A DNA stretch of 64,000 nucleotides from Gammaproteobacteria bacterium (GCA_029287575.1 JARFQW010000188.1:19365-83364), one strand, 5' to 3'; shown: positions 2,967 to 58,205, numbered from the stretch's first letter. Program-made: numbers and translations. Notes: generated by a model from the sequence alone, not told the origin.

Positions 2967-3797
2967 TTAGCTGAAACAGTGCTCGGGCGCCGGGTAGCTG
3001 CCGTCCTTCACGGCTGCCACGTACGCCGAGACCGCATCCAGGGGACTGCCTGTCTCGGCCATGAAGTCCCGGGCAAAACGCGGCTTGCGGCCGGGGGTTA
3101 CGCCGATAATGTCGTACAGCACGAGGATCTGCCCGTCCACGTCCGGCCCCGCGCCGATGCCGATCACCGGCACTGACAACTCGCTTGTGATCTCGGCCCC
3201 CAGCGCCGTCGGCACACATTCCAGGAGCACGATGTCCGCGCCGGCGTTCTGCAGGGTCAGGGCATCGGCCATCATCTCGCGCGCGGCCGACTCCTCCCTG
3301 CCCTGAACATGAAAGCCGCCGAGCTTGTGAATCGACTGGGGCGTGAGACCCAGGTGGGCGCAAACCGGGATATCCCGGCTGGCGAGAAATTCCACGGTTC
3401 GCACCTGCTCCGCGCCTCCTTCCAGCTTGACCATCTGGGCGCGGCCTTCCTGCATGATCCGGGCAGCGTTTTTCAGTGCCTGTTCGGGCAGCGCATAGCT
3501 GACGAAGGGCATATCGGCCACCAGGAACGCCCGGCCCACGCCGGCGGCGACACAACGGGTGTGATAGACCATGTGATCGACAGTGACCGGAACCGTCGTG
3601 TCGTGGCCCTGGACCACCATGCCCAGAGAGTCACCCACGAGAATCAGGTCCATGCCGGCGGCGTCCACGAGGGCGCCGAAGCTGGCGTCGTAGGCGGTCA
3701 GGCATGCGATCCGCTCCCCCGCCGCCTTCATTTCGATCAGCGTGCTGAGCGTAACCGGCGGGGCGTCCCGTTTTTGCAGGTGGCTGTAGATGCTCAT
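2967..3797 (-). CDS. panB: 3-methyl-2-oxobutanoate hydroxymethyltransferase PanB
   Basis: LTAYDASFGALVDAAGMDLILVGDSLGMVVQGHDTT..VKLEGG..HLGLTPQS is the typical PanB core. Gene order panB-panC-panD. Confidence 0.95.
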   Translation of the reverse strand: MSIYSHLQKRDAPPVTLSTLIEMKAAGERIACLTAYDASFGALVDAAGMDLILVGDSLGMVVQGHDTTVPVTVDHMVYHTRCVAAGVGRAFLVADMPFVSYALPEQALKNAARIMQEGRAQMVKLEGGAEQVRTVEFLASRDIPVCAHLGLTPQSIHKLGGFHVQGREESAAREMMADALTLQNAGADIVLLECVPTALGAEITSELSVPVIGIGAGPDVDGQILVLYDIIGVTPGRKPRFARDFMAETGSPLDAVSAYVAAVKDGSYPAPEHCFS

Positions 3798-3951
3798 CGA
3801 TAAGGGCTCATTGAACGTCGTGTCCCTCGCTGCGGTTCAAACCGACTCTTCGCGCGCCCGGCTTCCTCAGGCCAATCCGGCCCGGACTCGCGTTGGCACG
3901 ACGCGGGAATCGCGGGCGGGGTCGGGAGCATGGCTGAGGCGCCGGAAAACA

Positions 3952-4608
3952 TCAATCGCCGGCCGCGAAGGCTATCGGATTGTAGTAGTGGCGTCCGCCG
4001 CGGATCTGACGAATCATGCCAAGCAGCTCCTCATAGTCCCGGTCGTTATTGACCGGATCGATTTCGGCGGCGTTCACGATGAGAAGCGCGGTCGCCTCGT
4101 AGCGATGAAAAAACTGCATGTACGCGTAATTGAGCGAGGCCAGGTAGTTCGGCTCGATACCCTGCTCATAGCCGATGCCCCGGCGGCGGACCCGCTCCAT
4201 GAGAACCTCCACGGGCGCCTGAAGATAAACCACGAGATCCGGGGCCGGCGCGTCCAGCGAGAGCGTCCGATACACCTGGTCATAGAGCGCGTATTCGTCG
4301 TCGCCAAGTGTCAGCCGCGCGAAGATCGGGTCCTTTTCGAGCATGAAATCCGAAACCCGGGCCGGGCTGAACAGGTCGCTTTGACGCATTTCCTGGATCT
4401 GCCGGGCCCGCTGAAACAGGAAAAACAGCTGGGTCGGAAGCGCGGCCCCTTCGGGATTCTCGTAAAAGCGTTCCAGGAAGGGGTTCGTCTCGGGATTCTC
4501 GAGTACGAGCTCCGAATCGAGGCTCTCCGCCAACCGCCGGGCCAGACTGGTCTTGCCGACCCCGATCGGCCCCTCCACCACGATGTACCGCGAACCTTTT
4601 TCGCTCAC
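3952..4608 (-). CDS. deoxynucleoside kinase family protein
   Basis: P-loop VVEGPIGVGKTSLARRLAE, then ENPFLERFY and a dNK-type ERVRRRG(R)xYE lid. Its start overlaps the folK stop by 4 nt. Confidence 0.8.
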   Translation of the reverse strand: MSEKGSRYIVVEGPIGVGKTSLARRLAESLDSELVLENPETNPFLERFYENPEGAALPTQLFFLFQRARQIQEMRQSDLFSPARVSDFMLEKDPIFARLTLGDDEYALYDQVYRTLSLDAPAPDLVVYLQAPVEVLMERVRRRGIGYEQGIEPNYLASLNYAYMQFFHRYEATALLIVNAAEIDPVNNDRDYEELLGMIRQIRGGRHYYNPIAFAAGD

Positions 4609-5108
4609 ACGCGCCCCTTCGCCAATCGCCCCAGGCCGGAATCGCCGATCGCTTCGGCCAGGTCGGCCACCCGGCCGTGACCGGGAAGCCAGCAGGCCGG
4701 CGCGATCTCCGCCAGAGGCACCAGCACGAAGTTTCGCTCATGGGCGCCCGGATGGGGAAGGGTCAGCCGGGGGGTAGCCAGTTCCAGCTGACCCATGGCG
4801 ATGATGTCGAGATCCAGGGTTCTCGGACCCCAATGCGGTCCACCCCGGGTTCGTCCGTGGGCAGCCTCGATAGCCTCGAGCGCGTCCAGCAGCCGGTCCG
4901 GCTCCAGACGGGTCAGCAGACCCGCCACAGCGTTGATGAAATGAGGCTGATCCGCCGGTCCCATGGGCGCCGAAATGTACAGGCGCGAATGGCTGACCAG
5001 CCGGCATCCGGGGAGCTGGCCCAGCTCACCGATGGCCTGCTCGACCTGCCGGGACGGATCGGCCAGGTTACTCCCCAGCCCCACGAAGGCCGGTGTCCAG
5101 ACGTTCAC
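4605..5108 (-). CDS. folK: 2-amino-4-hydroxy-6-hydroxymethyldihydropteridine diphosphokinase FolK
   Basis: AFVGLGSNLADP...LDLDII...LTLPHPGAHERNFVLVPLAEI. I place the start at GTG 5108, which overlaps the pcnB stop as GTGA. The 208-aa track ORF adds an Ala/Gly/Pro-rich N-terminal run over pcnB that I do not believe. Confidence 0.85.
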   Translation of the reverse strand: MNVWTPAFVGLGSNLADPSRQVEQAIGELGQLPGCRLVSHSRLYISAPMGPADQPHFINAVAGLLTRLEPDRLLDALEAIEAAHGRTRGGPHWGPRTLDLDIIAMGQLELATPRLTLPHPGAHERNFVLVPLAEIAPACWLPGHGRVADLAEAIGDSGLGRLAKGRV

Positions 5109-6442
5109 TGGCCGGAGGTTTCGCCGCTGGCCTTTTTCGGCCGGCGCCGCCGGCGTCGGCGCCCCGCCGGCTTGGGCTGGCTCACCGCCTGCTCCCGATC
5201 GCCGGGCCCCTGGGCCTGGATGTCCGTCCACCAGCGGGCCAGTTCCGGGTCCGCATCCCCCACCTCGGCGCGTAGCACGAGCAGATCGTAGGCGGCGCGG
5301 AAGCGCGGGTGGTCCAGCGCCTTGAGCGCCCGCTTGCCACGGGTCCGGGTCAGACGCGGCTGCATCATCTGGATGTCCTTCATCGGACTGGTGATACGCC
5401 GCGGGATCGCCACCGCCGACTGCTGGTCCCGCGCGATCTCGTCACAGGCGGTGCTCAGCGCCTGCATCGGTGTGTCTCCCGCGGCCCGGCGTTCGTCTGC
5501 CCGCGCCACGGCCGGGTGCCACAGGAATACACCGAAGAGGAACATCGGCGTCACCGGCTTGCCCTGGGCCACGCGGTCATCCGTGTTCTGCACGCCCCGG
5601 CGGACCAGCGCCTCGACGGCCTCGCCATTGGGCCCGTCGATTGCGGCGTCGGTCATCGGGAACAGATAGCGGAACAGACCGTAGTGCCTGAGCAGATCGA
5701 AGGAGCGCATGCCGTGGCCGGCCAGAAAGAGCTTAAGACTCTCATCAAAGAGCCGTGCGGGCGGCACGCTTTCCAGCAGGGGAGCCAGCTCGCGGATCGG
5801 CGCCTCGGTTTCCGGGCTGATCGCAAAATCCAGCTTGGCCGCAAGACGCACGCCGCGCAGCAGGCGAACCGGATCTTCCCGGTAGCGGTCCTCCGGCTCA
5901 CCGATGAGGCGCATCAGCTTGAGACCGACATCCTCCACGCCGGTCGTGTAGTCGCATATCGAGAAGTCGGCGATGTTGTAGTAAAGGGCGTTGACCGTGA
6001 AGTCCCGTCGCCAGACGTCCTCGTCGATCGTGCCGTAGCGATTATCCCGAAGGATGCGGCCCTCGCCGTCACGCACGAGCTCGCCGGCCTCGTCGTCCAT
6101 GTCCTCGGCCTCCTGGGCCGCCCGGAAGGTTGCCACCTCGATCACTTCGCGTCCGAAGTAGACATGCGCGAGCCGAAACCGCCGGCCGATCAGCCGGCAG
6201 TTGCGAAACAACTTCCGTACATCCTCCGGCCAGGCATCGGTGACCACGTCGAAATCTTTCGGCTCCCGACCGAGCATAAGATCCCGGACGCCGCCTCCTA
6301 CGAGGAAGGCCTGATAGCCGGCTTCCTTTAGCCGGTACAGGACCTTGAGGCAGTTCCGGGAGATCTGGGACCGGGAGATGCAGTGGTCAGGCCTGGGGAC
6401 GATCGTCGGGGCGTTGGTGTTGCTTTTCGCCTCCGAATTCAA
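5105..6442 (-). CDS. pcnB: poly(A) polymerase I PcnB
   Basis: Nucleotidyltransferase head FLVGGGVRDLMLGREPKDFDVVTD, RRDFTVNALYY, and an Arg-rich C-terminus. Conserved pcnB-folK order. Confidence 0.9.
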   Translation of the reverse strand: MNSEAKSNTNAPTIVPRPDHCISRSQISRNCLKVLYRLKEAGYQAFLVGGGVRDLMLGREPKDFDVVTDAWPEDVRKLFRNCRLIGRRFRLAHVYFGREVIEVATFRAAQEAEDMDDEAGELVRDGEGRILRDNRYGTIDEDVWRRDFTVNALYYNIADFSICDYTTGVEDVGLKLMRLIGEPEDRYREDPVRLLRGVRLAAKLDFAISPETEAPIRELAPLLESVPPARLFDESLKLFLAGHGMRSFDLLRHYGLFRYLFPMTDAAIDGPNGEAVEALVRRGVQNTDDRVAQGKPVTPMFLFGVFLWHPAVARADERRAAGDTPMQALSTACDEIARDQQSAVAIPRRITSPMKDIQMMQPRLTRTRGKRALKALDHPRFRAAYDLLVLRAEVGDADPELARWWTDIQAQGPGDREQAVSQPKPAGRRRRRRRPKKASGETSGQ

Positions 6443-15385: not shown

Positions 15386-17707
15386 CTAGCTGGCCGGCGC
15401 TCCGGTCAGGGCCCGGAAGCGGTCCGAAGACCACAGGCCCTCCCAGCGCGGATCTGCCACCAGGTACTCCGGGTTATAGCCAAGCGATACGGCCTGTTCC
15501 AGCGCATCGATAGCGGGATCGGTGTCGTTACTGCGGGCCAGAACGAGGGCGCGCGCGGCATGGCCATCCGGAGCGCGCGGCGCCAGTTCGATCGCCCGGT
15601 CGGCGCTCCTCAGGGCCTCGGGCAAGCGGCCTGCCTGGGAAAGGTACCGGGCCAGATCTGCGTGCACCATGGCGTCGGCCGGTGTCTGGACCGCCGCCTG
15701 TCCGGCCAGGTCGATGGCCCGAAGCAGACTGTCCCGGGCCAGGGCTTCCTCCCCGGGGACAAACGCAGCCGCCTCGGCCAGTTCCCCCCATGTCCAGTAG
15801 GCATCCGGGGCCAGCCGGGCCGCCTCTCTGAAGGCATCGACGGCATCGGCCATGCGCTCGCCGAAATAGATCTCGCCGAGATTGGCCCACGCGAAAACCG
15901 TGGGCTCGATCTCCAGGGAGCGCCGAAACGCCGCTTCGGCCTCCGCGTCGTTGCCGGTATCCAGCAGGCCCGCGCCAAGCGAGGTCCAGGCATCGGCGCT
16001 GTCCCCCTTGAGTTCGACCACCTTGCGGTAGTACGGCAGGGCCTCCCGGCCCCGCCCCACGTTCACGAGAAAATGCCCCATGGCCGTGTAGCTGCCCCAG
16101 TAGGACGGGTCGATCGCGATAGCCGCGCTGTAGGCCTCGTAAGCCTCATCGGGCCGGTTGCGGGCGTACAGCACGTCGCCGAGACCGTACCGGGCCTCGA
16201 TCAGATTCGGAAACGACGCCAGCGCCAGCCGGTACTCGTCCTCGGCCGCCGCCAGCCGTCCGGTCAGCCGATACAGCGCGCCCCGTGCCGCATGGGTCTC
16301 CGCAAAATCCGGATCCAGCGCCGTGGCCTCGGCACAGGCATTCTCCGCCCGGGTCAGCAGCGCGCCCGTTCGGTTGCGCCGGTAGCGGTGTACGGCCAGG
16401 TCGCATTCGGCCGCGCGCGCCGGCCCGTAGCCGGGGTCCAGCTCGACGCTCTGGGTCAGGAGACGTTCGGCCGTATCCAGGGCATCAGGAGTCTTCGGTT
16501 CCCGAAGAAGCTGGCGTGCCTGAAGATAGAGGTCATAGGCACCCAGCCCCGTGACCGGGGCCGGGTCCGTGGCGGGCCCTGTCAGGACCACGCCGAGGGC
16601 GGCCAGTACCTCCCGGGCGACGTCCTGGCTCACCTGGGAGACGGCGGGTCCGGTCGCAGTAAAGGTCTCCGCCCAGAGCGACAAACCCTCGCGCCCGTCG
16701 GCCAGGCTGACCGCGAGGGTGATTTCGTCGCCCTCGCGCGTGACGGTGCCTTCCAGCACCGCCCCAACACCGAGTCGGCCGGCGATGGCGGGGACGTCAC
16801 CGCCCTGGGCCGCGTGGTAGCGGGCCGAGCGCCATGAAGCCACGCGAAGCGCGTCGTGGTGCATCAGCCGATTGGTCAGTTCTTCCGCCAGTCCCTCCGC
16901 CAGTCCGGCCCCCCCGTCGGGATTGCGCGGGCCGGCAAAAGGCAATACCGCCACGGTCGGTTCGGACCCAACAACGGCGACCGGCACCCGTGCGGCGGCT
17001 TCGGAGGCTTCGCGGGGTACGGCCGAACGTTCGTGGAACAACCAGCCCGCGGCTCCCGAAATCACGAGGCCGGCCAGACCCAGGGACACGGCGACGCCGC
17101 GATTGCGGCTCTCCGACGGTGCGGGGGAGGATGTCGCCCAGCCCAGAACCAGCGCCAGCGGGAACCCCAGGGCCAGCACGGCCACGACGAACGTCAGCGT
17201 CCAGTCCGGCAGCCCGAGAGCCGGAAACACGGTCTCGGCGACCTGCACGAGCAGCCAGGCCAGAGCGCCATAGACGGCAGCCACCCGAAGGATATGCCCC
17301 CGAGACGCGCGAGCCGGCCCGGGAGCGGCTTGCGCCGGCGGCGAGGCCGGATCGGGCCCGGATTGTGCATCGCCGGCGGCCGCGGGCCGTGGAGTCACCA
17401 GGAGCCGGTAGCCCCGTTTCGGGAGTGTTTGCACGAAGCGCGGCTCGTGGGCATCGTCGGCGAGCGCCTGGCGCAGGTCCGATACACAGCGCGTAAGCGG
17501 CTGCATGCTCGGATAGCCCGGCCGCCAGACGTCGTGCAGCAGCGTTTCCCTGGACACCACCTCGCCGGGCTCCCGGGCGAGACGCAGCAGCACCTCCATG
17601 GCCTTGGGTTGCACATGGCGGGTTCCCCGGGGCCCTTCGATTTCGCCCAGCAGCGGGCGCACCTGGAAGTCTCCCAGGGCAAAACCGTTGAGCAGTTGCT
17701 CCTGCAT
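15386..17707 (-). CDS. ToxR/CadC-like membrane transcriptional regulator (winged helix + TM segments + TolB-N-like domain + TPR repeats)
   Basis: The N-terminus FQVRPLLGEIEGPRGTRHVQPKAMEVLLRLAREPGEVVSRETLLHDVW...VSDLRQAL..FVQTLPKRGYRL is an OmpR/CadC-type wHTH. Hydrophobic segments follow at ~aa 150-230, then many TPR-like repeats. ATG 17707 is preferred over GTG 17770, which has no SD. Confidence 0.75.
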   Translation of the reverse strand: MQEQLLNGFALGDFQVRPLLGEIEGPRGTRHVQPKAMEVLLRLAREPGEVVSRETLLHDVWRPGYPSMQPLTRCVSDLRQALADDAHEPRFVQTLPKRGYRLLVTPRPAAAGDAQSGPDPASPPAQAAPGPARASRGHILRVAAVYGALAWLLVQVAETVFPALGLPDWTLTFVVAVLALGFPLALVLGWATSSPAPSESRNRGVAVSLGLAGLVISGAAGWLFHERSAVPREASEAAARVPVAVVGSEPTVAVLPFAGPRNPDGGAGLAEGLAEELTNRLMHHDALRVASWRSARYHAAQGGDVPAIAGRLGVGAVLEGTVTREGDEITLAVSLADGREGLSLWAETFTATGPAVSQVSQDVAREVLAALGVVLTGPATDPAPVTGLGAYDLYLQARQLLREPKTPDALDTAERLLTQSVELDPGYGPARAAECDLAVHRYRRNRTGALLTRAENACAEATALDPDFAETHAARGALYRLTGRLAAAEDEYRLALASFPNLIEARYGLGDVLYARNRPDEAYEAYSAAIAIDPSYWGSYTAMGHFLVNVGRGREALPYYRKVVELKGDSADAWTSLGAGLLDTGNDAEAEAAFRRSLEIEPTVFAWANLGEIYFGERMADAVDAFREAARLAPDAYWTWGELAEAAAFVPGEEALARDSLLRAIDLAGQAAVQTPADAMVHADLARYLSQAGRLPEALRSADRAIELAPRAPDGHAARALVLARSNDTDPAIDALEQAVSLGYNPEYLVADPRWEGLWSSDRFRALTGAPAS

Positions 17708-17753
17708 ACGGGTCCCCGTTGCAATGGGCAAAGTATAGCGGCCGCTGGCCGCA

Positions 17754-18938
17754 TCAAGCCGAACCCGCACGCCGCGGCGCCGCGGCGACCACCGGGCAAT
17801 GCTCGAGGGGCACCGGGTAGTCCGCCAGCTCCACCGTCGGCTGGAACTGTCCGGCCAGCTCGTCGACGAGACGTCGCCATGCCTCGGGGCTATCGGGAAT
17901 CGGACCCTCCGCTTCCGCTGCCCAGACCTGGTCGCCTGTACGCGTATCGCTCAGACGGACAATGACGCGGACACGACCGCCCACGACGTTGACCAGCCCG
18001 TTGAGGGCCAGGTCCGCCGGCGCTCCGGCGGAGCGCACCCGCATGCCGGGGACCGCTGCGAGCCGCAGTCTGACCTCTTCGGTCAGGCTGTGGGACAAGG
18101 CCCTCGCCGTCACGATCCGGCCGGCGGCGTCGAAGGGCTCGACGACAACGGCCGCCGGCGCCGGTCCCGATCCCGCGGCTTCGGGGCCGAGCCAGGCGGC
18201 GCCACCGGAGGAAACGAGATTGGCGGTCAGCACCACCGTGCAGAGCACGAGCAGCAGCGCGCGCGAAGCCAGCGTTCCGACAAAGCGGAACGGGCTGACG
18301 ATCGGCCTCTCCCGGGGTGCCCTGCGCACGCGGCCGGCATCGATATCGAATGCCCAGGCCAGCGCCACACTGACCGGGAACCCCAGGGCCAGCGTGACGA
18401 CCACAAAGGTGATGGCCCAGTCCGGAACGAGCACGATCGGGAAGACGGTAGCGGATACCTCCGTGGCGACCCACGCGAAAATCACGTAGGCCAGGGCCAC
18501 CCGGACCACCCGGCGGCGGCGAAGCTCCGCCCAGAGACCGGGCGCGGACCCGCGAGAGGCAGGGCCAGGCCCGACCGTATTGCCGTCCGGGCCCGGCGGC
18601 TCGTCAGCGGGCAAGGCGGACACCGGCGCGAGCAGCCGGTAGCCCCGCTTCGGCAGGGTCTGGATGATGGCCGGCGCGTGGGCCTGGTCCCGAAGCGCGT
18701 GACGGATTTCGCTGATGACATGGGTCAGGGCATGGTCACCCACCGGCTCACGGGACCAGATCTCGGCCAGCAGGGTTTCCCGGCTGACGAGCAGCCCGGG
18801 ACGCTCCGCCAGGAACACCAGGACACGCATCGCCCGGGGATGCAGGCGCACCGGGCCATGCGGCCCGAAAATCTCACCGGTCCGAGGCTCGACCCGGAAG
18901 GGGCCGATCCGGAAGACACTGGGCAGTGGCTGGCGCAT
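17754..18938 (-). CDS. ToxR/CadC-like membrane transcriptional regulator (paralog of the downstream gene, no TPR)
   Basis: FRIGPFRVEPRTGEIFGPHGPVRLHPRAMRVLVFLAERPGLLVSRETLLAEIW...ISEIRHAL...IIQTLPKRGYRL, followed by the same VALAYVIFAWVATEV..PDWAITFVVVTLALGFPV membrane block as its neighbour. GAGGAA precedes ATG 18938. Confidence 0.7.
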   Translation of the reverse strand: MRQPLPSVFRIGPFRVEPRTGEIFGPHGPVRLHPRAMRVLVFLAERPGLLVSRETLLAEIWSREPVGDHALTHVISEIRHALRDQAHAPAIIQTLPKRGYRLLAPVSALPADEPPGPDGNTVGPGPASRGSAPGLWAELRRRRVVRVALAYVIFAWVATEVSATVFPIVLVPDWAITFVVVTLALGFPVSVALAWAFDIDAGRVRRAPRERPIVSPFRFVGTLASRALLLVLCTVVLTANLVSSGGAAWLGPEAAGSGPAPAAVVVEPFDAAGRIVTARALSHSLTEEVRLRLAAVPGMRVRSAGAPADLALNGLVNVVGGRVRVIVRLSDTRTGDQVWAAEAEGPIPDSPEAWRRLVDELAGQFQPTVELADYPVPLEHCPVVAAAPRRAGSA

Positions 18939-19044
18939 GGGAATTCCTCGTTTCGGACCTGGTGAGCCGACCCTAGGCGCCCACGGGAGAGGTATCAACG
19001 CAACTCCATGACAAATAACAAAAAAATTAGACAAACGTAGAGAT

Positions 19045-49524: not shown

Positions 49525-50071
49525 CGCCCTGCTGTCCCATGTACTTGCCGGCCCGGTCCCGGTAAGAGACCTCACACACGTCGTCGGCTCCGAAAAAGAG
49601 CATCTGGGCCACGCCCTCGTTGGCGTAGATTTTGGCCGGCAACGGCGTGGTGTTCGAGAACTCGAGGGTCACATGGCCCTCCCATTCGGGTTCCAGCGGC
49701 GTCACGTTCACGATGATGCCGCAGCGCGCATACGTGGACTTCCCCAGACAGACCGTCAGTACCTCGCGCGGAATACGGAAATACTCCACGGTTCTGGCCA
49801 GAGCAAAACTGTTCGGCGGAATGATGCACACATCCGCCTCCACGTCCACGAAACTGCTCTCGTCGAAGGCCTTCGGGTCGACCACGGCGGAGTTGATGTT
49901 CGTAAAGATCTTGAACTCCGAGGAGCAGCGGACGTCATAGCCGTAGCTCGACGTGCCGTAGCTGACCATCCGGCTGTCCCCCGAAGCGCGCACCTGGCCC
50001 GCTTCGAACGGCTCGATCATGCCGTGGTCCTGCGCCATGCGCCGAATCCAGCGATCAGACTTGATGCTCAT
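49505..50071 (-). CDS. dcd: dCTP deaminase Dcd
   Basis: [13 protein letters not shown]...SSYGYDVR...[29 protein letters not shown]; 188 aa. Confidence 0.95.
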
Positions 50072-51153
50072 CAGTCATCCTCGATCGTGATTGTCGGGAT
50101 CCGGCCTCCGGCCCCCGAGGTCTGGGCCGCCAGCGCGGCGGCCATGCGTCGGGCGATATTGACGTAGGCGCGCGCCGGAGCCCCGTCCGGATCCGCCACG
50201 ACGCTGGGATTGCCTTCGTCCGCCTCGGCGCGGATGCGAATATCCAGCGGCAGGCCGCCGAGCAGCGGAACTTCGTACTGGGAGGCCATCGACGCGCCGC
50301 CGCCGGAACCGAAAACCGGCTCCTCGTGGCCGCAGTTCGTGCAGACGTGCGTGCTCATGTTCTCGACGATACCCAGCACCGGGACCTGAACCTTGCGAAA
50401 CATGGCCAGACCCTTTTTGGCGTCCAGCAGCGCGATGTCCTGGGGCGTGGTGACGATAACCGCGCCGCTCACGGGAACCTGCTGGGACAGGGTCAGCTGG
50501 ATGTCACCGGTCCCCGGCGGCATGTCGACGAGCAGATAGTCCAGGTCGCCCCATTCCGTGTCGTTCATCATCTGCACGAGGGCCGAGGTCACCATGGGGC
50601 CGCGCCAGACCATCGGTTCGTCTTCGGAGATCAGAAAGCCGATGGACATGCAGCGAATCCCGTAGCCGACGAGCGGGTCGATACGTTTGCCGTCGCGGGT
50701 GGTCGGCCGCTGCCCGGACAGACCCAGCATGCGTGGCTGGCTCGGGCCGTAAATGTCAGCATCGAGAACGCCGACCCGTGCACCCTCCGACGCGAGGGCC
50801 AGCGCCAGATTGACCGTGGTCGTGCTCTTGCCGACCCCGCCCTTGCCCGAGGCAACCGCAATGATATTGCCGACCCGGTCCATGGGTTTCAGGTTCGGCT
50901 GCACCGGCTGCGCCGCCACGGCCCACTCCAGATCCAGTTTCAGCGACTCCACGCCCTCGGTTTCCCGGAGGTGGGCGCCCAACGCGGGCACCAGATCGCC
51001 GCCAAACCGGTCCGCCGGGATACCCAGCTTGAGAGCAATACGAGCCTGGTTGCCGTCCCGTTCGGCGGCACGGACCTCGCCTACGGAAACCAGCGGCCGG
51101 TCCAGAATGGGGTCGTGATAGGCCGCGACGGCGGCAAGAAGCTGTTCGTCCAT
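50071..51153 (-). CDS. apbC: iron-sulfur cluster carrier ATPase ApbC/Mrp
   Basis: [21 protein letters not shown] and the CxxC pair (HVCTNCGH); 360 aa. Confidence 0.9.
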
Positions 51154-51286
51154 CGGGTAATGCGAGCCTCGGGTGAGCGTTTTGAGGTGGGGTCGACTGG
51201 CGCGGGATTGTATCTCAGCCGGTTCGGCCTCGCAGGGCGGCGGAAGCCGGGCCGGATCCGGGCAGATGCCCGGAATGTGACGTGCA

Positions 51287-51316
51287 TGACATAAAACGGT
51301 GTCATTGCCTTAGAAT
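51287..51316 (+). promoter_or_regulatory. candidate sigma70 promoter with overlapping palindrome upstream of the kinase/PilT operon
   Basis: TGACAT (51287-51292), an 18-nt spacer, then TAGAAT (51311-51316). The inverted repeat ATGACA-N8-TGTCAT (51286-51305) overlaps the -35 and spacer. Confidence 0.3.
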
Positions 51317-51524
51317 ATGGAAAAATGCGACGCTGTTTCCCTGCACAAGCGCGCGCGCAGGCCGGGCGAAGGGATGGCCCGCAAAACAGGAACATGGCAG
51401 TCGAACGACGCGTGAGGAGTTCAGGCACAGGCGGTTTTCCGCCCGCCCCCCCATCCGGGAGGAGCTTTCCGGCCAGCAGCCGGCAAGGCGGCATGTTTGC
51501 GCCCGCCGTTCGCGAGGCCCGGCG

Positions 51525-53918
51525 GTGAGTCTGCTCGGCGGCCTGCGTTCGGATCGTCTGATCGCGAAACTGATGGCCTGTAGCGACATGGGCTCACCGG
51601 ACGCCACCAGGACGATCGAAAAGCTGCAGCGCATCGCGCCGGCCGCGGTGCCGAAAATGATCGAGGAGCTGGCTTCGGCGGGCAAGCACCAGACCGAGAT
51701 GCTGGTCGAGGGCCTGGCCACCCTTGCGGACACCAAGACGCTTCCGGCTTACCTGGAAGGTCTGGCGTCCGACAATCAGCGCGTTGCATCCGGGGTGGCC
51801 TGGGCGCTGGCCTCGAGCAAGGAATTCAATCCCAACCGGCTGCTGGACGTTCTCACGGACGAGGATGTGCCGACCTCGGCGGTCATCGAGATCCTGGCTA
51901 CCCACAAGGAACGTCTCGACATCCGCCAGGTACTGACCCAGGCGTATGCGCTGGACACGGCCGAGAAAGCTGCCCTGTTCAAGATCGCCGCGGATATCGT
52001 CGACGACGAGGTCATTCCCGATCTGGTGGCGCGACTCGGCGGCAAGGATGTCGCCGCGAGAATTCATATCATGGACATCCTCTCGAAACACGACCGGCGG
52101 GATGTTCATCAGGGCCTGGAGGACCAGCTCAAAAGCAGCAACAAGCTGATCCGGCAGGCGGCGCTAACGGCGATTGCGCGGACCAAGGCCCGGCCCAACG
52201 TGGAGCTGCTTGCCAATCTGCTCAGGGACCCGGACCTGGACGTGCAGAACAAGGCGGTGGATGCCCTCATCCGGGTCAATCACCCGGACACCATGCGCCA
52301 CCTGGTCGAGGTCCTGAAAGACGAGTCCGAGTACACCCGGCGGGCGGCGGTGGAAGTACTCAACGAAATCGGCACGCCGGAGTCGATCAAGGACCTGCTG
52401 GGCGCCCTGCGGGACGACGACTGGTGGGTCCGGGCCAGGGCCACCGATGCGCTCGCGAAGATCGGCGGTCCCAAAGTGGTCGATGCAGTGCTCCAGCTGG
52501 TCAACGACGAGGACGAGGAGATCCGCCGTTCCGCCATCGAGATTCTCAACACGACCGGTGACGAACGGGCAGTCAGCACCCTCATCAAGGCCACCCGCGA
52601 CGAGGACTGGTGGGTCAGGGAACGGGCCGCCGACGCGCTGGCCGAGCTCGGTGACGAGCGGGCCTTGCCGGCGCTGGCTCAGATGCTCAAGGGAGACGCC
52701 CGTTCCATTCCGTCGGCGGTACGCGCCCTGGGCAAATTCGGCGATCAACGGCTGGTGAAGCCGATCCTGGCGCTCATGCAGCGGCGGGAGAAGGATATTC
52801 GGCTCGAGACCCTGCATGCGGCGGTCCGGCTCGCGAATGAAGACAACTTCGAGCAGATACGCGAAGCCGTCCAGGCGGCCGGGCAGGTGGACGACGATGC
52901 GGTTCGGCAGGCCTCGGCCGCGGCCATCCGCGAACTCGAGGAGCGCTTTTCCCCGACGAGCATGGCGGCCGCCGCGGATGCGGCTCGCTTCGAGGAACCG
53001 GAACGCACACTGCTGGTGGAGAGCAGCACGCCCGCGGTGGTTTCAGAACCTCCGTCGGTTCAGGAAACCCTCGACATCACGGCGCTCGAACCCGGGGACG
53101 TGGTGGACAAGCGCTACAAGTTCCTGCGCAAGATCGGCAAGGGCGCCTTCGGCACCGTGCTGCTCATGGAGGACATGGTGGTCGAGGAGCCGGTGGTGCT
53201 GAAGTTCCTCAACCCCAACGTGGCGTCGGACGAGGAGATGATGAAGCGGTTCGTGCACGAGCTGCGGTACTCCCGGAAGATCACCCATCGAAACGTGATC
53301 CGCATTTACGATTTTCTGTACATGCAGGGTCTCTACGCCATTTCGATGGAGTACTTCAACTCCCATCCCCTCGGCGAGGAGATCAAGGACGAGCAGCCGA
53401 TGCCGCTGAAGCTTGCGGTGAAATATGCCTGCGATATCGCCACCGGCATGTCGGTCGCCCACCAGGCGGGAATCGTGCACCGCGATCTCAAGCCGGCGAA
53501 CATCCTCATCGACAAGGAAGGCCTGCTCAAGATCGTGGATTTCGGCGTGGCCGCGGCGCGCAGCAGCGGCGACACCCAGCTGACCAAGACCGGCTATGTG
53601 ATCGGCTCGCCGAAATACATGGCGCCGGAACAGATTCTCGGCAAGAAGGTGGACGAGAAGGCGGATATCTACAGCCTCGGCGTCATTCTCTACGAGATGC
53701 TTACCGGTATTCCGCCATACAGCCGCGGCGATCACATGGCGGTCATGTATCAGCACGTTCAGGGCAAGGCCGCACGCGCCCGGGACGTCAACAAGGACCT
53801 CCCGGAATCCGTTTCCGACGCGGTCGCCAAGTGCATGGCGGTGGACAAGAACAAGCGCTACGACAGCATGGACGAGCTGCGTTCCGTGTTCGGTCGTTTT
53901 CTCGCGGCGGGGGGCTAG
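51525..53918 (+). CDS. HEAT-repeat (PBS-lyase type) protein fused to a C-terminal Hanks-type Ser/Thr protein kinase
   Basis: There are more than 10 HEAT-like units (e.g. LRDPDLDVQNKAVDALI, LRDDDWWVRARATDALAKIGG, TRDEDWWVRERAADALAELGD). The kinase domain lies at ~53115-53900, with GKGAFGTV, VVLKF, HRDLKPANILI, DFG, SPKYMAPE and DIYSLGVILYEMLTG. Start provisionally at GTG 51525. The 81 codons upstream of it in the track ORF are Arg-rich and unconvincing. Confidence 0.8.
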   Translation: MSLLGGLRSDRLIAKLMACSDMGSPDATRTIEKLQRIAPAAVPKMIEELASAGKHQTEMLVEGLATLADTKTLPAYLEGLASDNQRVASGVAWALASSKEFNPNRLLDVLTDEDVPTSAVIEILATHKERLDIRQVLTQAYALDTAEKAALFKIAADIVDDEVIPDLVARLGGKDVAARIHIMDILSKHDRRDVHQGLEDQLKSSNKLIRQAALTAIARTKARPNVELLANLLRDPDLDVQNKAVDALIRVNHPDTMRHLVEVLKDESEYTRRAAVEVLNEIGTPESIKDLLGALRDDDWWVRARATDALAKIGGPKVVDAVLQLVNDEDEEIRRSAIEILNTTGDERAVSTLIKATRDEDWWVRERAADALAELGDERALPALAQMLKGDARSIPSAVRALGKFGDQRLVKPILALMQRREKDIRLETLHAAVRLANEDNFEQIREAVQAAGQVDDDAVRQASAAAIRELEERFSPTSMAAAADAARFEEPERTLLVESSTPAVVSEPPSVQETLDITALEPGDVVDKRYKFLRKIGKGAFGTVLLMEDMVVEEPVVLKFLNPNVASDEEMMKRFVHELRYSRKITHRNVIRIYDFLYMQGLYAISMEYFNSHPLGEEIKDEQPMPLKLAVKYACDIATGMSVAHQAGIVHRDLKPANILIDKEGLLKIVDFGVAAARSSGDTQLTKTGYVIGSPKYMAPEQILGKKVDEKADIYSLGVILYEMLTGIPPYSRGDHMAVMYQHVQGKAARARDVNKDLPESVSDAVAKCMAVDKNKRYDSMDELRSVFGRFLAAGG

Positions 53919-53924
53919 AGAGCC

Positions 53925-55016
53925 ATGGCACGCATCGACGCCTTTCTGAAGCTTGGCCTCGCCCAGGGCTGCTCGGATATCCATCTCGCCGTCGGCGTGC
54001 CACCCATGCTTCGCCTGCGTGGCGACCTGATGCCGATCAAGTTTCGCGAGCTGAGCAATTCCGAGCTCGAGAGCTACGTGCTCGAGGTCCTCACGGAAAA
54101 ACAGCGGGAGCACTTCAAGGGCGGCAACGACCTGGATTTCTCCTACGTCACCGGCGAGGGCGGCCGGTTCCGGGTCAACCTGTTCCGCAAGGACACGGGC
54201 ATCGGCGCGGTGTTCCGCTACATCCCCAGCGACATACCCAGTCTCGACGCGCTGAGTCTGCCGCCGATCCTGAAGAGCCTGTGCGACCACCATCAGGGCA
54301 TGATCCTTGTCACCGGCGCCACCGGAACCGGCAAGTCCACGACTCTGGCGGCAATGATCGACCACATCAACAGCAGCCGCCAGCTGAATATCATCAGCCT
54401 CGAGGACCCGATCGAATTCGTTCATCGCAGCAAGAACTCTCAGATCATCCAGCGCGAACTGGGCACTCACATCAGCGCCTTCGCCGATGGCGTGCGCGCC
54501 GCGATGCGTGAAGATCCGGACGTCATCCTCGTCGGTGAGATGCGCGACGCCGAAACCATCAGTATGGCCATGACGGCCGCCGAGACCGGCCATCTGGTGC
54601 TGGGAACACTGCACACGACCGGCGCGGTAAAAACACTGGACCGGATCATCGACGCGCTGCCCGCGGAACAGCGCGAGCAGACCAAGACCTTCCTGTCCCA
54701 GAGTCTCAACGCCGTCATCACCCAGGTCCTCGCCAAGAGCACCGACGGCCGCAGCCGCAAGGCCATTCTCGAGATCATGGTGAACAACAAGGCCATTTCG
54801 AAGCTGATCATGGCCGACCAGAATCATCTCATTCCGTCTCAGCTGCAGACCGGCAAGGCGGACGGTATGCAGATGCTGGACCAGGCCCTGATGGAAGCCG
54901 TGCAGGCAAAGGAAATCGATCCGGATGATGCCTACCGTTTCTCGAATGACAAGAAACAGTTCGCGAAGCTGGTGACGGACACCAGCATCCTGCCGAAGCT
55001 GGAGCTGGAAGCATGA
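53925..55016 (+). CDS. PilT-family hexameric secretion/twitching ATPase (divergent paralog)
   Basis: GCSDIHLAVGVPPMLRLRGDL, Walker A GATGTGKST, Asp box SLEDPIEF, Walker B DVILVGEMRD and His box TGHLVLGTLHT. It starts 6 nt after the kinase stop. Confidence 0.85.
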   Translation: MARIDAFLKLGLAQGCSDIHLAVGVPPMLRLRGDLMPIKFRELSNSELESYVLEVLTEKQREHFKGGNDLDFSYVTGEGGRFRVNLFRKDTGIGAVFRYIPSDIPSLDALSLPPILKSLCDHHQGMILVTGATGTGKSTTLAAMIDHINSSRQLNIISLEDPIEFVHRSKNSQIIQRELGTHISAFADGVRAAMREDPDVILVGEMRDAETISMAMTAAETGHLVLGTLHTTGAVKTLDRIIDALPAEQREQTKTFLSQSLNAVITQVLAKSTDGRSRKAILEIMVNNKAISKLIMADQNHLIPSQLQTGKADGMQMLDQALMEAVQAKEIDPDDAYRFSNDKKQFAKLVTDTSILPKLELEA

Positions 55017-55038
55017 TCCACCCGGGAGAGCCGATGCC

Positions 55039-56106
55039 ATGGAACTGATCGAGGGCCTGCTTCGCCAGATGCTGGAACGCGACGGATCCGATCTGCACCT
55101 GGTCGCCGGTGACCCGCCCCGTATCCGGATCTACGGCGACCTGATCACCCTGGATCACCCGGTGCTCGACAGCGAGGCGCTGAAAATCGCCGTGGACGGC
55201 ATTCTGCCGCGCGCCCAGGCGGAGATTTTCAAGCGCCATGACCAGGTCGATTTCGCCCACATGGTAGAGGGCCTGGCGCGTTTCCGGGTGAACGTGTTTC
55301 GCCATCTCGGCGGGATCGGCGCCATCATGCGGGCGATTCCATCGACCGCGTTGACCCTGGAAGAGCTGCGGATGCCGGACTCCGTGCGCAATCTGTGCAA
55401 GCACTCCCAGGGACTCATACTGGTCACGGGCAAGACCGGATCGGGCAAGTCCACCAGCCTCGCCGCGATGCTCGACAACATCAATCGGCGGCTGAAGGGG
55501 CATATCCTGACGATCGAGGACCCCATCGAGTTCGTGCACCAGCGCAAGGGCTGCCTGATCAGTCAGCGTGAGATCGGGATCCACGCCAAGTCCTTTGCGG
55601 GCGCGCTCCACTCCGCGCTGCGCGAGGATCCCGATGTCATCCTGGTCGGCGAACTCCGGGACCTCGAGACCATGAGCACCGCCATTACGGCCGCGGAGAC
55701 GGGTATCCTCGTGATGGGGACGCTGCACACCAACGGCGCGGCGCAGACGGTGGATCGCCTTGTCAACGCGTTCCCGCCGGACAAGCAGCCCCACGTGAGA
55801 ACCATGCTGTCCACGTCCCTGCGCGGCGTCATCTCCCAGCAGCTATGCAAGAAAAAGGGCAGCAGCGGCCGCGTCGCCTCCCTGGAAATCCTCATCAACA
55901 CCCCGGCGGTCTCCAATCTGCTCCGCCAGGGCAAGCTGGACCAGCTGGAGAACGTCATGCAGTCCGGCATGAGCATCGGCATGCGAACGATGGACGGCGC
56001 CCTGCAGGAACTCGTGGACCAGCGGATGATCAGCGGGCGGGAGGCCTATGAAAAGGCGCTCAACAAGGACCGGTTCAAGCGCTACGCAAACGAACCGGCA
56101 GCCTGA
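55039..56106 (+). CDS. pilT: PilT-family twitching-motility-type ATPase
   Basis: GSDLHLVAGDPPRIRIYGDL, GKTGSGKST, TIEDPIEF, DVILVGELRD, TGILVMGTLHT and the AIRNLIREGK-like VSNLLRQGK. It starts 22 nt after the preceding gene. Confidence 0.85.
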   Translation: MELIEGLLRQMLERDGSDLHLVAGDPPRIRIYGDLITLDHPVLDSEALKIAVDGILPRAQAEIFKRHDQVDFAHMVEGLARFRVNVFRHLGGIGAIMRAIPSTALTLEELRMPDSVRNLCKHSQGLILVTGKTGSGKSTSLAAMLDNINRRLKGHILTIEDPIEFVHQRKGCLISQREIGIHAKSFAGALHSALREDPDVILVGELRDLETMSTAITAAETGILVMGTLHTNGAAQTVDRLVNAFPPDKQPHVRTMLSTSLRGVISQQLCKKKGSSGRVASLEILINTPAVSNLLRQGKLDQLENVMQSGMSIGMRTMDGALQELVDQRMISGREAYEKALNKDRFKRYANEPAA

Positions 56107-56159: not shown

Positions 56160-58205
56160 ATGAATCCCACCCGCCATATCCTGGTAACCAGCGCTCTTCC
56201 CTACGCCAATGGCGCGCTCCACCTGGGCCACCTCCTCGAGGCCATCCAGACCGACATCTGGGTCCGGTTTCAGAAGATGCGCGGCCACCGCTGTACCTAC
56301 GTCTGCGCCAGCGATGCTCACGGCACGCCCATCATGCTGCGTGCTCGCAAGGACGGCATCTCGCCGGAGGCCCTGATCGAGGCCATGAGCCGTGAGTTCG
56401 AGCGGGACTACGCGGATTTCCTGGTCCGCTTCGACAACTTCCACACCACGCACTCGACCGAGAACAAGACCCTCGTGGAAGGCATTTTCTCTGCCCTGGA
56501 TACGGCGGGTCACATCCAGGCCCGAACGATCCGCCAGGCCTACGACACCCAGGAGCAGATGTTCCTGCCGGACCGTTTCGTGCGCGGCGAATGCCCGGTC
56601 TGCGGAACGGCCGACCAGTACGGCGACAGCTGCGAAGCCTGTGGGTCCACCTACTCGCCCGCGGATCTCATCAATGCGAGATCCGCCCTGTCCGGCACGC
56701 CACCGGTGGAGCGGGACTCCGAGCATCTGTTTTTCCGCCTCGGCCAGTTCGACGCCATGCTGCGGGAGTGGGCGGATTCGGGCACGCTGGACGACGGCGT
56801 CCGGCGGAAGCTCAACGAATGGTTCGAGGCCGGGCTGCAGGACTGGGACATCACCCGCGACGCACCGTATTTTGGCTTCGAGGTGCCCGGTCATCCCGGC
56901 AAGTTTTTCTATGTCTGGCTGGACGCGCCAGTCGGCTACATGGCCAGTTTTCTTCAGCTCTGCGAACGCCATCCGGAGCTGGACTTCGACGCCTACTGGC
57001 GGCGCGGCTCGGAGACCGAGCTGTACCACTTCATCGGCAAGGACATCATGTATTTTCATGCGCTGTTCTGGCCGGCGGTTCTCCATGGTGCGGGCTATCG
57101 GGTTCCCGATGCGGTGTTCGCCCACGGCATGCTCAACGTGAACGGCGAGAAGATGTCGAAATCCCGCGGCACGTTCATCAAGGCGCGAACCTATCTGGAG
57201 CACCTGGACCCGGAGTATCTGCGCTACTACTTCGCCAGCAAGCTGGGCCCGGGGGTCGACGACATCGACCTGAGCCTCGACGACTTCATCCAGAAAGTGA
57301 ACTCGGACCTGGTGGGCAAGCTGGTCAACATCGCCAGCCGCTGTGCGGGCTTTGTCCATCGCCTCGCCGACGGGCGGCTCGCGGCGGATCTGGCGGAACC
57401 CGCCCTGCACGCAGCGATTGCCGATGCGGTCGGTCCGCTGGCGGAGGCCTACGAGGGCCGGCGGTACGGGCACGCCATGCGGGAAATCATGGCGCTCGCC
57501 GATCAGGCCAACCAGTACATCGATCTGCACAAACCCTGGAAGCTGGCGAAGGAGCCCGGCAACGAGGCGACCGTCCAGGCGGTGTGCACCCAGGGCCTGA
57601 ACGCTTTCCGCAGCCTGACCGCATATCTCAAACCGGTATTGCCGGGGCTCGCGGCGCGGGCCGAAGCGTTCCTGCAGATTCCGGAACTGACCTGGGAAGA
57701 CGCCGGGCGGCCGCTTCTGGACCACCGGATCGGCGCCTTCAAACCGCTCCTGCAGCGGGTCGATCCAAAAACCGTCGCGGCCATGCTGGACGACTCCCGT
57801 GAGAACGTGTCCAAGGCGGCGGCGCCAGAGCCCGCCGCCGCGCCCGGGACCGGTGACACGGAGACGGAAACCGCCCAGATCACGATTGATGACTTTCTCA
57901 GGGTCGATCTGCGGGTGGCGAGAATCGTCAGCGCCGAGCGGGTCGATGGCGCCGACAAGCTGCTGCGTCTGGAACTGGACGTCGGTTCGGGGGACGCGGA
58001 GCGCACCGTATTCTCGGGCATCCGGTCGGCCTATGAGCCCGACGCCCTGACCGGGCGGCTCACCGTGGTGGTCGCGAACCTCAGGCCCCGGAAGATGCGT
58101 TTCGGCGTATCCGAGGGCATGGTTCTGGCCGCGGGCCCGGGCGGGCGGGACATCTTTCTCCTGGCCCCCGATTCCGGGGCCACACCGGGAATGCGAGTGA
58201 CCTGA
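56160..58205 (+). CDS. metG: methionine--tRNA ligase MetG
   Basis: [16 protein letters not shown] (HIGH), a zinc knuckle CPVCG...[13 protein letters not shown], and a C-terminal tRNA-binding (EMAP-like) domain. Confidence 0.97.

Follow-up and report, generated by a model that had tools for sequence, protein, structure and literature searches.

Here, we describe a three-gene unit in which a soluble Hanks-type Ser/Thr kinase, with a long HEAT-repeat solenoid as its non-catalytic part, is encoded directly upstream of two distinct PilT-family ATPases, here called PilTA and PilTB. The trio is kept together, in this order, in several unrelated genomic contexts and in several phyla, and full-text literature searches found no description of it. 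We consider it more likely than not that the unit is the conserved core of an undescribed phosphorylation switch dedicated to a pair of PilT-like motors, probably acting on type IV pili, although the target machine and the kinase substrate are inferred and no experiment or interaction model links the kinase to the ATPases.

The unit lies in a stretch of 64,000 nucleotides from a Gammaproteobacteria bacterium (GCA_029287575.1 JARFQW010000188.1:19365-83364), referred to below as the window. The features of the locus are as follows.

50071..51153 (-), apbC/mrp (Fe-S cluster carrier), the upstream flank, divergent from the module
51154..51524, the 370-nt intergenic region between apbC and the kinase gene, presumed to be a divergent promoter region from its position only
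51525..52988 (+), kinase gene, N-terminal HEAT-repeat solenoid (aa 1-488, about 31 helices)
52989..53096 (+), kinase gene, poorly conserved linker (aa 489-524)
53097..53918 (+), kinase gene, Hanks-type Ser/Thr kinase domain (aa 525-797) plus stop codon
53925..55016 (+), PilTA, PilT-family hexameric ATPase paralog (363 aa), first of the pair
55039..56106 (+), PilTB, PilT-family hexameric ATPase paralog (355 aa), second of the pair
56160..58205 (+), metG (methionyl-tRNA synthetase), the downstream flank on the same strand, 53 nt after PilTB and possibly co-transcribed

The gene and domain assignments of the sequence-only reading, which had described a HEAT-repeat kinase and two PilT-like ATPases separated by gaps of 6 and 22 nt between apbC and metG, were confirmed. 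The kinase is a protein of 797 aa, and its start at 51525 is supported because ortholog alignments begin at residue 1. Pfam identified Pkinase (PF00069, E=3.8e-55, 187.6 bits against a cut-off of 31.7, aa 531-783) and HEAT_2 (E=1.1e-49, in 5 stretches), together with HEAT and HEAT_PBS hits. In the AF2 model the pLDDT is above 90 over an all-helical 1-488 and below 50 for aa 488-512, and aa 250-400 is the most conserved part. The absence of a TM segment was also confirmed, the maximum Kyte-Doolittle 19-residue mean being 1.27. The catalytic residues K560, H652, D654, N659, D672, F673, G674, P701, and E702 are invariant across 66 homologs, and the kinase motifs (GxGxxG, Lys, HRD, DFG, and APE) are conserved in about 70-80 orthologs. 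A Foldseek search with the full kinase model, in which the HEAT part was not searched separately, returned only kinase domains, with TM-scores normalised to the target of 0.81-0.92 to those of Stk1, PknB, and PknA. Only the repeat type is shared with the PBS-lyase and NblB-type HEAT proteins, since the scores were below the cut-offs for NblB (93 bits against 300), CpcE (74 against 330), and CpcF (40 against 220).

Both ATPases pass the curated cut-off of TIGR01420, the PilT/PilU family (319.1 bits), with 424.5 bits for PilTA and 444.9 bits for PilTB, and cover profile positions 2-342 of 343. The Walker A, Asp box, Walker B, and His box (GxTGxGKST, EDPIEF, ILVGExRD, and GTLHT) are at least 98% conserved in 70-75 orthologs of each protein. 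PilTA is 45% and PilTB 52% identical to Pseudomonas aeruginosa PilT, and the two are 44% identical to each other. The flanking genes were identified as ApbC (NF008669, 424 bits against a cut-off of 348) and MetG (NF001100, 928 bits).

The sequence-only reading regarded the first ATPase as divergent in the region of the AIRNLIRE motif and the second as more canonical; however, both depart from canonical PilT at this motif and in the tree, and the first is the more conserved of the two among orthologs (70-79% against 63-71% identity). The first Arg of the motif is A, S, or G, rather than a conserved Ser, in all 51 PilTA-type and PilTB-type sequences examined, whereas all four reference PilTs have AIRNLIRE. 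In the window the motif reads AISKLIMA in PilTA and AVSNLLRQ in PilTB, and gammaproteobacterial PilTA has also lost the RE. In neighbour-joining trees, which included only four references and no PilU, gene 1 of all three architectures described below forms one clade (500/500) and gammaproteobacterial gene 2 forms another (500/500), while P. aeruginosa PilT groups with Geobacter and Aquifex PilT (495/500) to the exclusion of both. Neither protein is closer to PilU, since the scores against the PilU structure 9n32 were 246 bits (PilTA) and 274 bits (PilTB), as compared with 310 and 335 bits against P. aeruginosa PilT 3jvu.

The module had been read as an insertion into a conserved junction. The junction is indeed conserved, and in Escherichia coli K-12 mrp (-) and metG (+) are direct divergent neighbours, 131 nt apart, but the insertion is not recent. 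All 80 species-level genome loci with enough flank (Steroidobacterales/Woeseiaceae) have dcd-apbC followed by kinase-PilTA-PilTB-metG, with kinase identity of 54-63%; we refer to these as type 1. The arrangement is order-wide and vertically inherited, with GC3 (0.82-0.86) like that of the neighbours. Among metagenome loci with room downstream, 70 of 71 have a PilT gene next to the kinase, and all 46 with room for two have two.

The same trio, in the same order, occurs in two other settings. In other Gammaproteobacteria, including Ectothiorhodospira (type 2), a DUF6812-like gene precedes the kinase, PilTA, and PilTB, which are followed by FHA proteins, with a PP2C phosphatase nearby. In a clade whose named members are Candidatus Eisenbacteria, Latescibacterota, and Krumholzibacteria (type 3), the order is FHA, kinase, PilT, PilT, and HD-PP2C, with overlapping genes. 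Individual examples are a locus (L086) with an ABC transporter/OmpA context and an upstream DUF6812-like gene, the Ectothiorhodospira shaposhnikovii locus, with overlapping genes followed by glnE, and a locus (L091) reading FHA-kinase-PilT-PilT-HD/PP2C with overlapping start and stop codons; the relatives of the L091 kinase that carry a source name are from the three groups named above. The FHA, PP2C, and FHA-GAF-HD neighbours were confirmed by Pfam. For the DUF6812-like protein, a profile search against the PDB found nothing and Pfam gave only a sub-threshold DUF6812 match.

The module is not a bare kinase plus PilT pair, as the sequence-only reading had it; in relatives it comes with a full phospho-Thr writer (kinase), reader (FHA-domain proteins, some membrane-anchored), and eraser (PP2C) set, often with HD/HD-GYP-type and GAF domains. 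In the lineage of the window only the writer and the two motors remain at the locus, and no FHA, PP2C, or DUF6812-like homolog was found in the window or within +/-10 kb of the 80 type-1 loci.

The three genes are probably co-expressed. No terminator-like site was found on the + strand between 51000 and 58400, and the PilTA-PilTB gap has a median of 9 nt. The 6-nt gap between the kinase gene and PilTA is, however, particular to this sublineage; the median in the order is about 105 nt, so a separate promoter is possible. Promoter and terminator scans gave no signal above shuffles, no consensus sigma-70 site was found in the 370-nt leader, and a search of the leader and the intergenic regions for RNA elements returned nothing in Rfam at E<=1 except a spurious IRES hit.

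Weak support for a functional link comes from distance-matrix correlation after removal of the species signal. The values for HEAT-PilTB (0.81) and HEAT-PilTA (0.67) are similar to that for HEAT-kinase domain (0.79), whereas HEAT-MetG is 0.19 and HEAT-Dcd 0.16; it should be kept in mind that the control HEAT-ApbC also reaches 0.58 and that pairwise distances are not independent. The kinase family is also not obligatorily tied to PilT, since more distant full-length homologs (28-39% identity) occur without PilT genes, next to PP2C only, thiG-trmB, or clpB/bolA.

In the reading we favor, the kinase would use its HEAT solenoid to dock onto the ATPases or an adaptor and phosphorylate either the ATPases or FHA-recognised partners, which would switch assembly, localisation, or activity of a PilTA/PilTB motor pair. 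PilTB would act as a PilT-like primary motor and PilTA as an accessory, PilU-like partner, most probably in retraction of type IV pili. The link to type IV pili rests only on family membership; no pilus gene lies near the module in any neighbourhood inspected. In the window, this negative result is based on Pfam scans of about 34 of the 54 gene calls; the others (valS, prfC, proS, purM/N, dcd, and rnf) were named by eye, some look spurious, and a few short gaps between calls were not examined.

More tentatively, the trio and its FHA, PP2C, HD-type, and DUF6812-like companions in other lineages may constitute a distinct, ancient signalling-motor system found in several phyla, in which a phospho-threonine switch gates a heteromeric PilT-like ATPase. 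That ATPase would work either as a conditional second retraction motor for type IV pili or on a machine that is not a pilus at all, and this would be the first dedicated Ser/Thr-kinase control of a PilT-type motor in bacteria. How bacteria decide when to retract type IV pili, and what the many extra PilT paralogs do, are open questions, as with the four PilT paralogs of Myxococcus xanthus (PMC13584747), and the genetic tie seen here suggests phosphorylation-dependent engagement of a second motor pair. The module is abundant: at least 582 species-level genomes encode a tblastn-confirmed relative of the kinase (E<=1e-3), though some may be generic HEAT or kinase proteins, and the 80 best-matching loci all belong to this kinase family. 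They include the cosmopolitan sediment family Woeseiaceae and soil Steroidobacteraceae, and cultured carriers include E. shaposhnikovii, Povalibacter uvarum, and Lentisalinibacter orientalis.

It is possible, although less likely, that the PilT-like pair has been repurposed to drive or reset a machine other than the type IVa pilus, for example another envelope or membrane complex organised by the membrane-anchored FHA proteins, with the kinase/FHA/PP2C set as its assembly switch. No pilin, PilB, PilC, or PilMNOPQ gene was seen among the window genes scanned or in any of the three kinds of neighbourhood, both ATPase clades are separate from the canonical PilT references, and both have lost the first Arg of the PilT-specific motif. 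The accessory genes encode signalling proteins, some with TM segments; the L091 FHA protein ends in a hydrophobic stretch and the L091 HD-PP2C protein starts with one. Nevertheless, both ATPases are full-length PilT-family members above the curated cut-off, and their best matches among solved structures are PilT retraction ATPases. The absence of pilus neighbours is expected, since pilT/pilU genes are normally unlinked to the other pilus genes, as is established for Pseudomonas. Woeseiaceae MAGs are also reported to encode the twitching genes PilT, PilI, PilJ, and PilU (PMC12175321); the Woeseiaceae paper supplements hold no pil gene table. If the pair does not serve pili, it would define a new use for PilT-type motors.

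We regard it as doubtful that the two ATPases are simply the ordinary pilT and pilU of this lineage, with the kinase an unrelated housekeeping neighbour kept nearby by general synteny conservation, though this judgement was reached without a test for a canonical pilT/pilU/pilB set elsewhere in the genome. Within the order the flanking housekeeping genes (dcd, apbC, and metG) are just as syntenic as the trio, the kinase-PilTA spacer is usually about 100 nt, distant kinase homologs sit in housekeeping contexts without PilT, and tandem pilT-pilU pairs are common (PMC6762196). On the other hand, the trio stays together when all flanking genes change, and across phyla, often with overlapping reading frames; both ATPases score higher against PilT than against PilU and form clades that exclude P. 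aeruginosa PilT; and the kinase and ATPase distances co-vary at a level similar to that of the two domains of the kinase itself.

A mobile or anti-phage defence cassette inserted at the apbC-metG junction is very unlikely, for although the kinase domain matches PADLOC kinase models (PD-T4-6 and mad6) at E values down to 2.8e-78 and GC dips slightly over the ATPase genes (to 0.61 against 0.64-0.69 in the flanks), the PADLOC hits cover only the generic kinase domain, the ATPases have no defence match beyond a weak P-loop hit, the position is fixed and inheritance vertical in at least 80 species, GC3 is like that of the neighbours, and no integrase, repeats, or tRNA were seen among the Pfam hits at the site.

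Among known systems, the tandem PilT/PilU retraction ATPases of type IVa pili (P. aeruginosa, Vibrio cholerae, Neisseria, and M. xanthus) likewise comprise two adjacent PilT-family hexameric ATPase paralogs of about 350-365 aa with the four ATPase boxes, one closer to PilT and the other more divergent in the C-terminal motif (PMC6762196 and PMC13584747 for the PilT-PilU division of labour). Here, however, neither protein groups with canonical PilT, both score lower against a PilU structure, the first Arg of AIRNLIRE is absent in both, and the order is divergent-then-PilT-like, the reverse of pilT-pilU. We found no report of a dedicated Hanks kinase, with FHA and PP2C in relatives, being encoded with pilT/pilU.

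In the threonine phosphorylation pathway of type VI secretion, as established for the P. aeruginosa H1-T6SS, a Hanks kinase (PpkA), a PP2C phosphatase (PppA), and an FHA-domain protein (Fha1) are encoded together with the ATPase-driven machine they control, and the full set is present in type-2 and type-3 relatives of our module. The associated ATPases are PilT-family, not ClpV, no T6SS core genes lie at the locus, the kinase is soluble with a HEAT solenoid instead of a TM segment plus periplasmic domain, and in the window itself FHA and PP2C are not adjacent. In the archaellum regulatory network of Sulfolobus, which also includes a vWA protein (ArnB), Hanks-type kinases (ArnC/ArnD), an FHA protein (ArnA), and a phosphatase (PP2A) control a type IV filament machine (PMC5300886, PMC6509490, PMC12852372). 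That network is archaeal and acts mainly on expression of archaellum components, its genes are not fused into an operon with the motor ATPase, and it has no HEAT-repeat kinase and no PilT-type retraction ATPase. Finally, the kinase domain fold and all catalytic motifs match those of the PknB/Stk1-type bacterial Hanks kinases, but there is no TM helix and there are no PASTA domains (NF033483 scores 274 bits against a cut-off of 450), the non-catalytic part being instead an N-terminal HEAT solenoid of about 490 aa.

The module and its immediate surroundings comprise the following features, with gaps of 6 nt between the kinase gene and the first ATPase gene, 22 nt between the two ATPase genes and 53 nt between the second ATPase gene and metG.

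50071-51153, minus strand: apbC, upstream of the module, with dcd also on this strand
51282-51524: stretch of 81 codons over which the kinase reading frame stays open upstream of its start
51525-53918, plus strand: 797-aa protein with HEAT repeats and a protein kinase domain
53925-55016, plus strand: 363-aa PilT-family ATPase, here called PilTA
55039-56106, plus strand: 355-aa PilT-family ATPase, here called PilTB
downstream of PilTB, plus strand: metG

Pfam identified five HEAT_2 stretches (E=1.1e-49) in the kinase protein, followed by a complete protein kinase domain (PF00069, E=3.8e-55, aa 531-783), and both ATPases exceed the curated cut-off of TIGR01420, the PilT/PilU family type 4a pilus ATPase model (424.5 and 444.9 bits against 319.1). 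None of the three proteins has a TM-like segment, the maximum 19-residue hydropathy being 1.27. Although the kinase frame is open upstream of the supported GTG start at 51525, ortholog alignments begin at this position, and the extension is therefore probably not translated. An AlphaFold2 model built on 66 homologs, with a mean pLDDT of 89.9, predicts an all-helical solenoid (aa 1-488, about 31 helices), a disordered linker (488-512) and a kinase domain, the last of which superposes on Stk1, PknB and PknA with a TM-score normalised to the target of 0.81-0.92.

Pfam scans of about 34 of the window's 54 gene calls, a few of them probably spurious, found only housekeeping and regulatory genes and no pilus genes; the other calls (valS, prfC, proS, purM/N, dcd and rnf) were named by eye, and some look spurious. 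The window also contains two tandem genes (15386-17770 and 17754-19034, both on the minus strand) that encode winged-helix (Trans_reg_C) proteins with apparent membrane segments, the first of which also has a long TPR array, and a gene (515-1495, plus strand) in which a cyclic-nucleotide-binding domain is fused to a GGDEF diguanylate cyclase. In E. coli K-12, mrp and metG are indeed direct divergent neighbours. The sequence-only reading, which had described a HEAT-repeat kinase and two PilT-like ATPases lying between apbC and metG, is therefore confirmed as an observation.

Its suggestion of an insertion into this junction needs qualification, since the insertion is not a recent one. A scan of one genome per GTDB species found at least 582 species with a tblastn-confirmed relative of the kinase (E<=1e-3), though one of the seed patterns is a generic HEAT motif and some of these may not be orthologs. 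The best 80 loci, a set biased towards close relatives of the query, are Steroidobacteraceae, Woeseiaceae and related Gammaproteobacteria, and include the cultured Povalibacter uvarum and Lentisalinibacter orientalis, as well as Steroidobacter and Woeseia MAGs. The best match to the kinase among the GTDB species representatives is only 63% identical, and the identical protein is known only from one 17-kb JGI contig; the window therefore comes from a lineage without a close species-representative genome in the collection scanned.

In every one of these loci with enough flank, the order is dcd and apbC on the minus strand, then kinase, PilTA, PilTB and metG, with identities to the window of 54-63% (kinase), 70-79% (PilTA) and 63-71% (PilTB). 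The GC3 of the three genes (0.82-0.86) matches that of the neighbours. The arrangement is thus an old, vertically inherited feature of the whole order, and the ATPase that the sequence-only reading called divergent is actually the better conserved of the two. PilTA and PilTB are almost always tightly spaced (median 9 nt), whereas the kinase-PilTA spacer is about 105 nt in most species and only 6 nt here. No terminator-like site lies on the plus strand between the kinase gene and metG.

MetG next to the module (loci L001-L080 and L092-L171) comes in two forms, 46-50% or 56-70% identical to the window's MetG, although gene order is unchanged, which suggests replacement of metG in some lineages. 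A few genomes have 0.5-2.1 kb of extra sequence between PilTB and metG (locus L141, 11634-13767; also L040, L065 and L077). In two MAGs, PilTA or PilTB appears split into two pieces (L034, 12507-14450; L056, 13603-14662), which could be a frameshift or an assembly indel error, and possibly pseudogenisation.

The trio is also a unit beyond this order. An exhaustive profile-free search of 1.84 billion representative proteins found collinear homologs of about 800 aa down to 28% identity, and their contexts fall into classes. In type 1, where the kinase is at least 46% identical to that of the window, one finds the apbC/metG setting, which is also seen in a GC-39% genome (locus L081).

In type 2 (39-46% identical; loci L086, L093-L103, L113, L164 and L171), a DUF6812-like gene of about 160 aa is followed by the kinase, PilTA, PilTB and then one or two FHA-domain proteins, often with a PP2C phosphatase and an FHA-GAF-HD protein divergently upstream, and the flanks are unrelated to those of type 1. 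In the Ectothiorhodospira shaposhnikovii locus (L172) the four genes overlap; a VgrG-like gene (Phage_GPD, DUF2345) about 5 kb upstream of the module in this organism (3187-5223) is probably coincidental. The small DUF6812-like protein (about 150-165 aa) lies directly upstream of the kinase in every type-2 locus (e.g., L086, 7654-8136; L094, 6499-6960; L098, 6208-6741; L172, 9520-10017). Of its members, 11 of 12 hit DUF6812 below its cut-off, and there is no match to any solved structure and no homolog in the window or in type-1 loci.

In type 3 (35% identical; L091, also L092, L095 and L096), an apparently membrane-anchored FHA protein, which in L091 ends in a hydrophobic stretch, precedes the kinase, two PilT-family genes and a 704-aa HD+PP2C protein, with start and stop codons overlapping throughout in L091. 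Homologs of this kinase that carry a source name are from Candidatus Eisenbacteria, Latescibacterota and Krumholzibacteria. In other lineages, of types 2 and 3, FHA-domain proteins flank the kinase-PilT-PilT core, as does a PP2C phosphatase fused to or next to HD/HD_5 and GAF domains (L091, 6431-6991 and 11642-13756; L098, 3158-6035 and 11690-13297), which hints at a nucleotide second-messenger input.

Among 71 metagenome loci with room downstream of the kinase, 70 have a PilT gene next to it, and all 46 with room for two have two. More distant kinase homologs (28-39%) lack PilT neighbours and sit next to a PP2C, after thiG-trmB, or between clpB and bolA; the kinase family is therefore broader than the module.

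PilTA and PilTB are 44% identical to each other. PilTB is 52% identical to P. aeruginosa PilT, which is no closer than P. aeruginosa PilT is to the Aquifex or Geobacter proteins, while PilTA is 42-45% identical to all of them, and both score lower against a PilU structure than against PilT. In a neighbour-joining tree of 51 module ATPases of all three types plus four structurally characterised PilTs, gene 1 of all types forms one clade (500/500 bootstraps), gammaproteobacterial gene 2 forms another (500/500), and the four reference PilTs form a split of their own (495/500). The duplication therefore predates the spread of the module, and neither paralog is the ortholog of canonical PilT, as far as a distance method and this small reference set can tell. 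All module ATPases have A, S or G in place of the first Arg of the PilT signature AIRNLIRE; PilTB-type proteins keep N-L-I-R-E/Q-G-K, whereas gammaproteobacterial PilTA-type proteins lose that as well. The Walker A, Asp, Walker B and His boxes are at least 98% conserved, so both are expected to hydrolyse ATP.

The main argument for functional coupling is the retention of gene order through complete turnover of the flanking genes and across phyla, often with overlapping reading frames, to which the recurrent presence of the other parts of a phospho-threonine signalling set (FHA readers and a PP2C eraser) adds. A mirror-tree test on 34 taxa gives weak additional support. After species divergence was regressed out, HEAT-domain distances correlate with PilTB (0.81) and PilTA (0.67) about as well as with the kinase domain of the same protein (0.79), and better than with MetG (0.19), Dcd (0.16) or ApbC (0.58), but one should keep in mind that these numbers are not independent observations and that one control is fairly high.

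An active-looking soluble Hanks kinase with a large HEAT solenoid is co-inherited as a unit with two active-looking PilT-family ATPases of distinct ancient clades, and in relatives the three are embedded in a kinase/FHA/PP2C cassette. From this we infer, without an interaction model or experiment linking the proteins, that the HEAT solenoid is the docking surface for the ATPases or an adaptor, and that phosphorylation of the ATPases or of FHA-recognised partners switches assembly, localisation or activity of a PilTA/PilTB motor pair. We further infer that the pair acts on type IV pili, with PilTB as a PilT-like motor and PilTA as an accessory partner, as in the PilT-PilU division of labour (PMC6762196, PMC13584747). 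That the trio is a conserved functional module is very likely; that it acts on type IV pili is about as likely as not; and that the ATPases are the direct substrates is less likely than not. Our somewhat better than even confidence in the composite statement is a compromise and not the product of these three judgements.

The main rival explanation is that the pair serves a different, non-pilus machine. No pilus gene is near the module in any neighbourhood inspected, and both paralogs have lost part of the PilT-specific motif; however, pilT/pilU are normally unlinked to other pilus genes, and Woeseiaceae are reported to carry twitching genes (PMC12175321). The readings as an ordinary pilT/pilU pair with an unrelated neighbour, or as a defence island, are poorly supported.

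This is a real gene module and, as far as the searchable literature shows, an undescribed one, since targeted full-text searches that did not cover subscription-only papers found no description of it. It is older and wider than the sequence-only reading supposed and has a clear, testable regulatory logic, although its target is unproven. PilT-type motor pairs and Ser/Thr phospho-switches are each already known, and it is their inferred combination here that appears to be new.

The module works like a hybrid of two known things, namely the tandem PilT/PilU retraction ATPases and the kinase/phosphatase/FHA pathways that gate other envelope machines, e.g., PpkA-PppA-Fha1 for type VI secretion and ArnC/ArnD-ArnA-PP2A for the archaellum (PMC5300886, PMC6509490, PMC12852372). 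By profile and motifs it is a member of the PilT/PilU family, but it departs from canonical PilT in the AIRNLIRE motif and in tree position, and it is not PilU-like. The kinase is a bona fide Hanks kinase but not a PASTA or PknB-type receptor kinase, and although its HEAT repeats are of the PBS-lyase type, it is far below the cut-offs of the lyase families.
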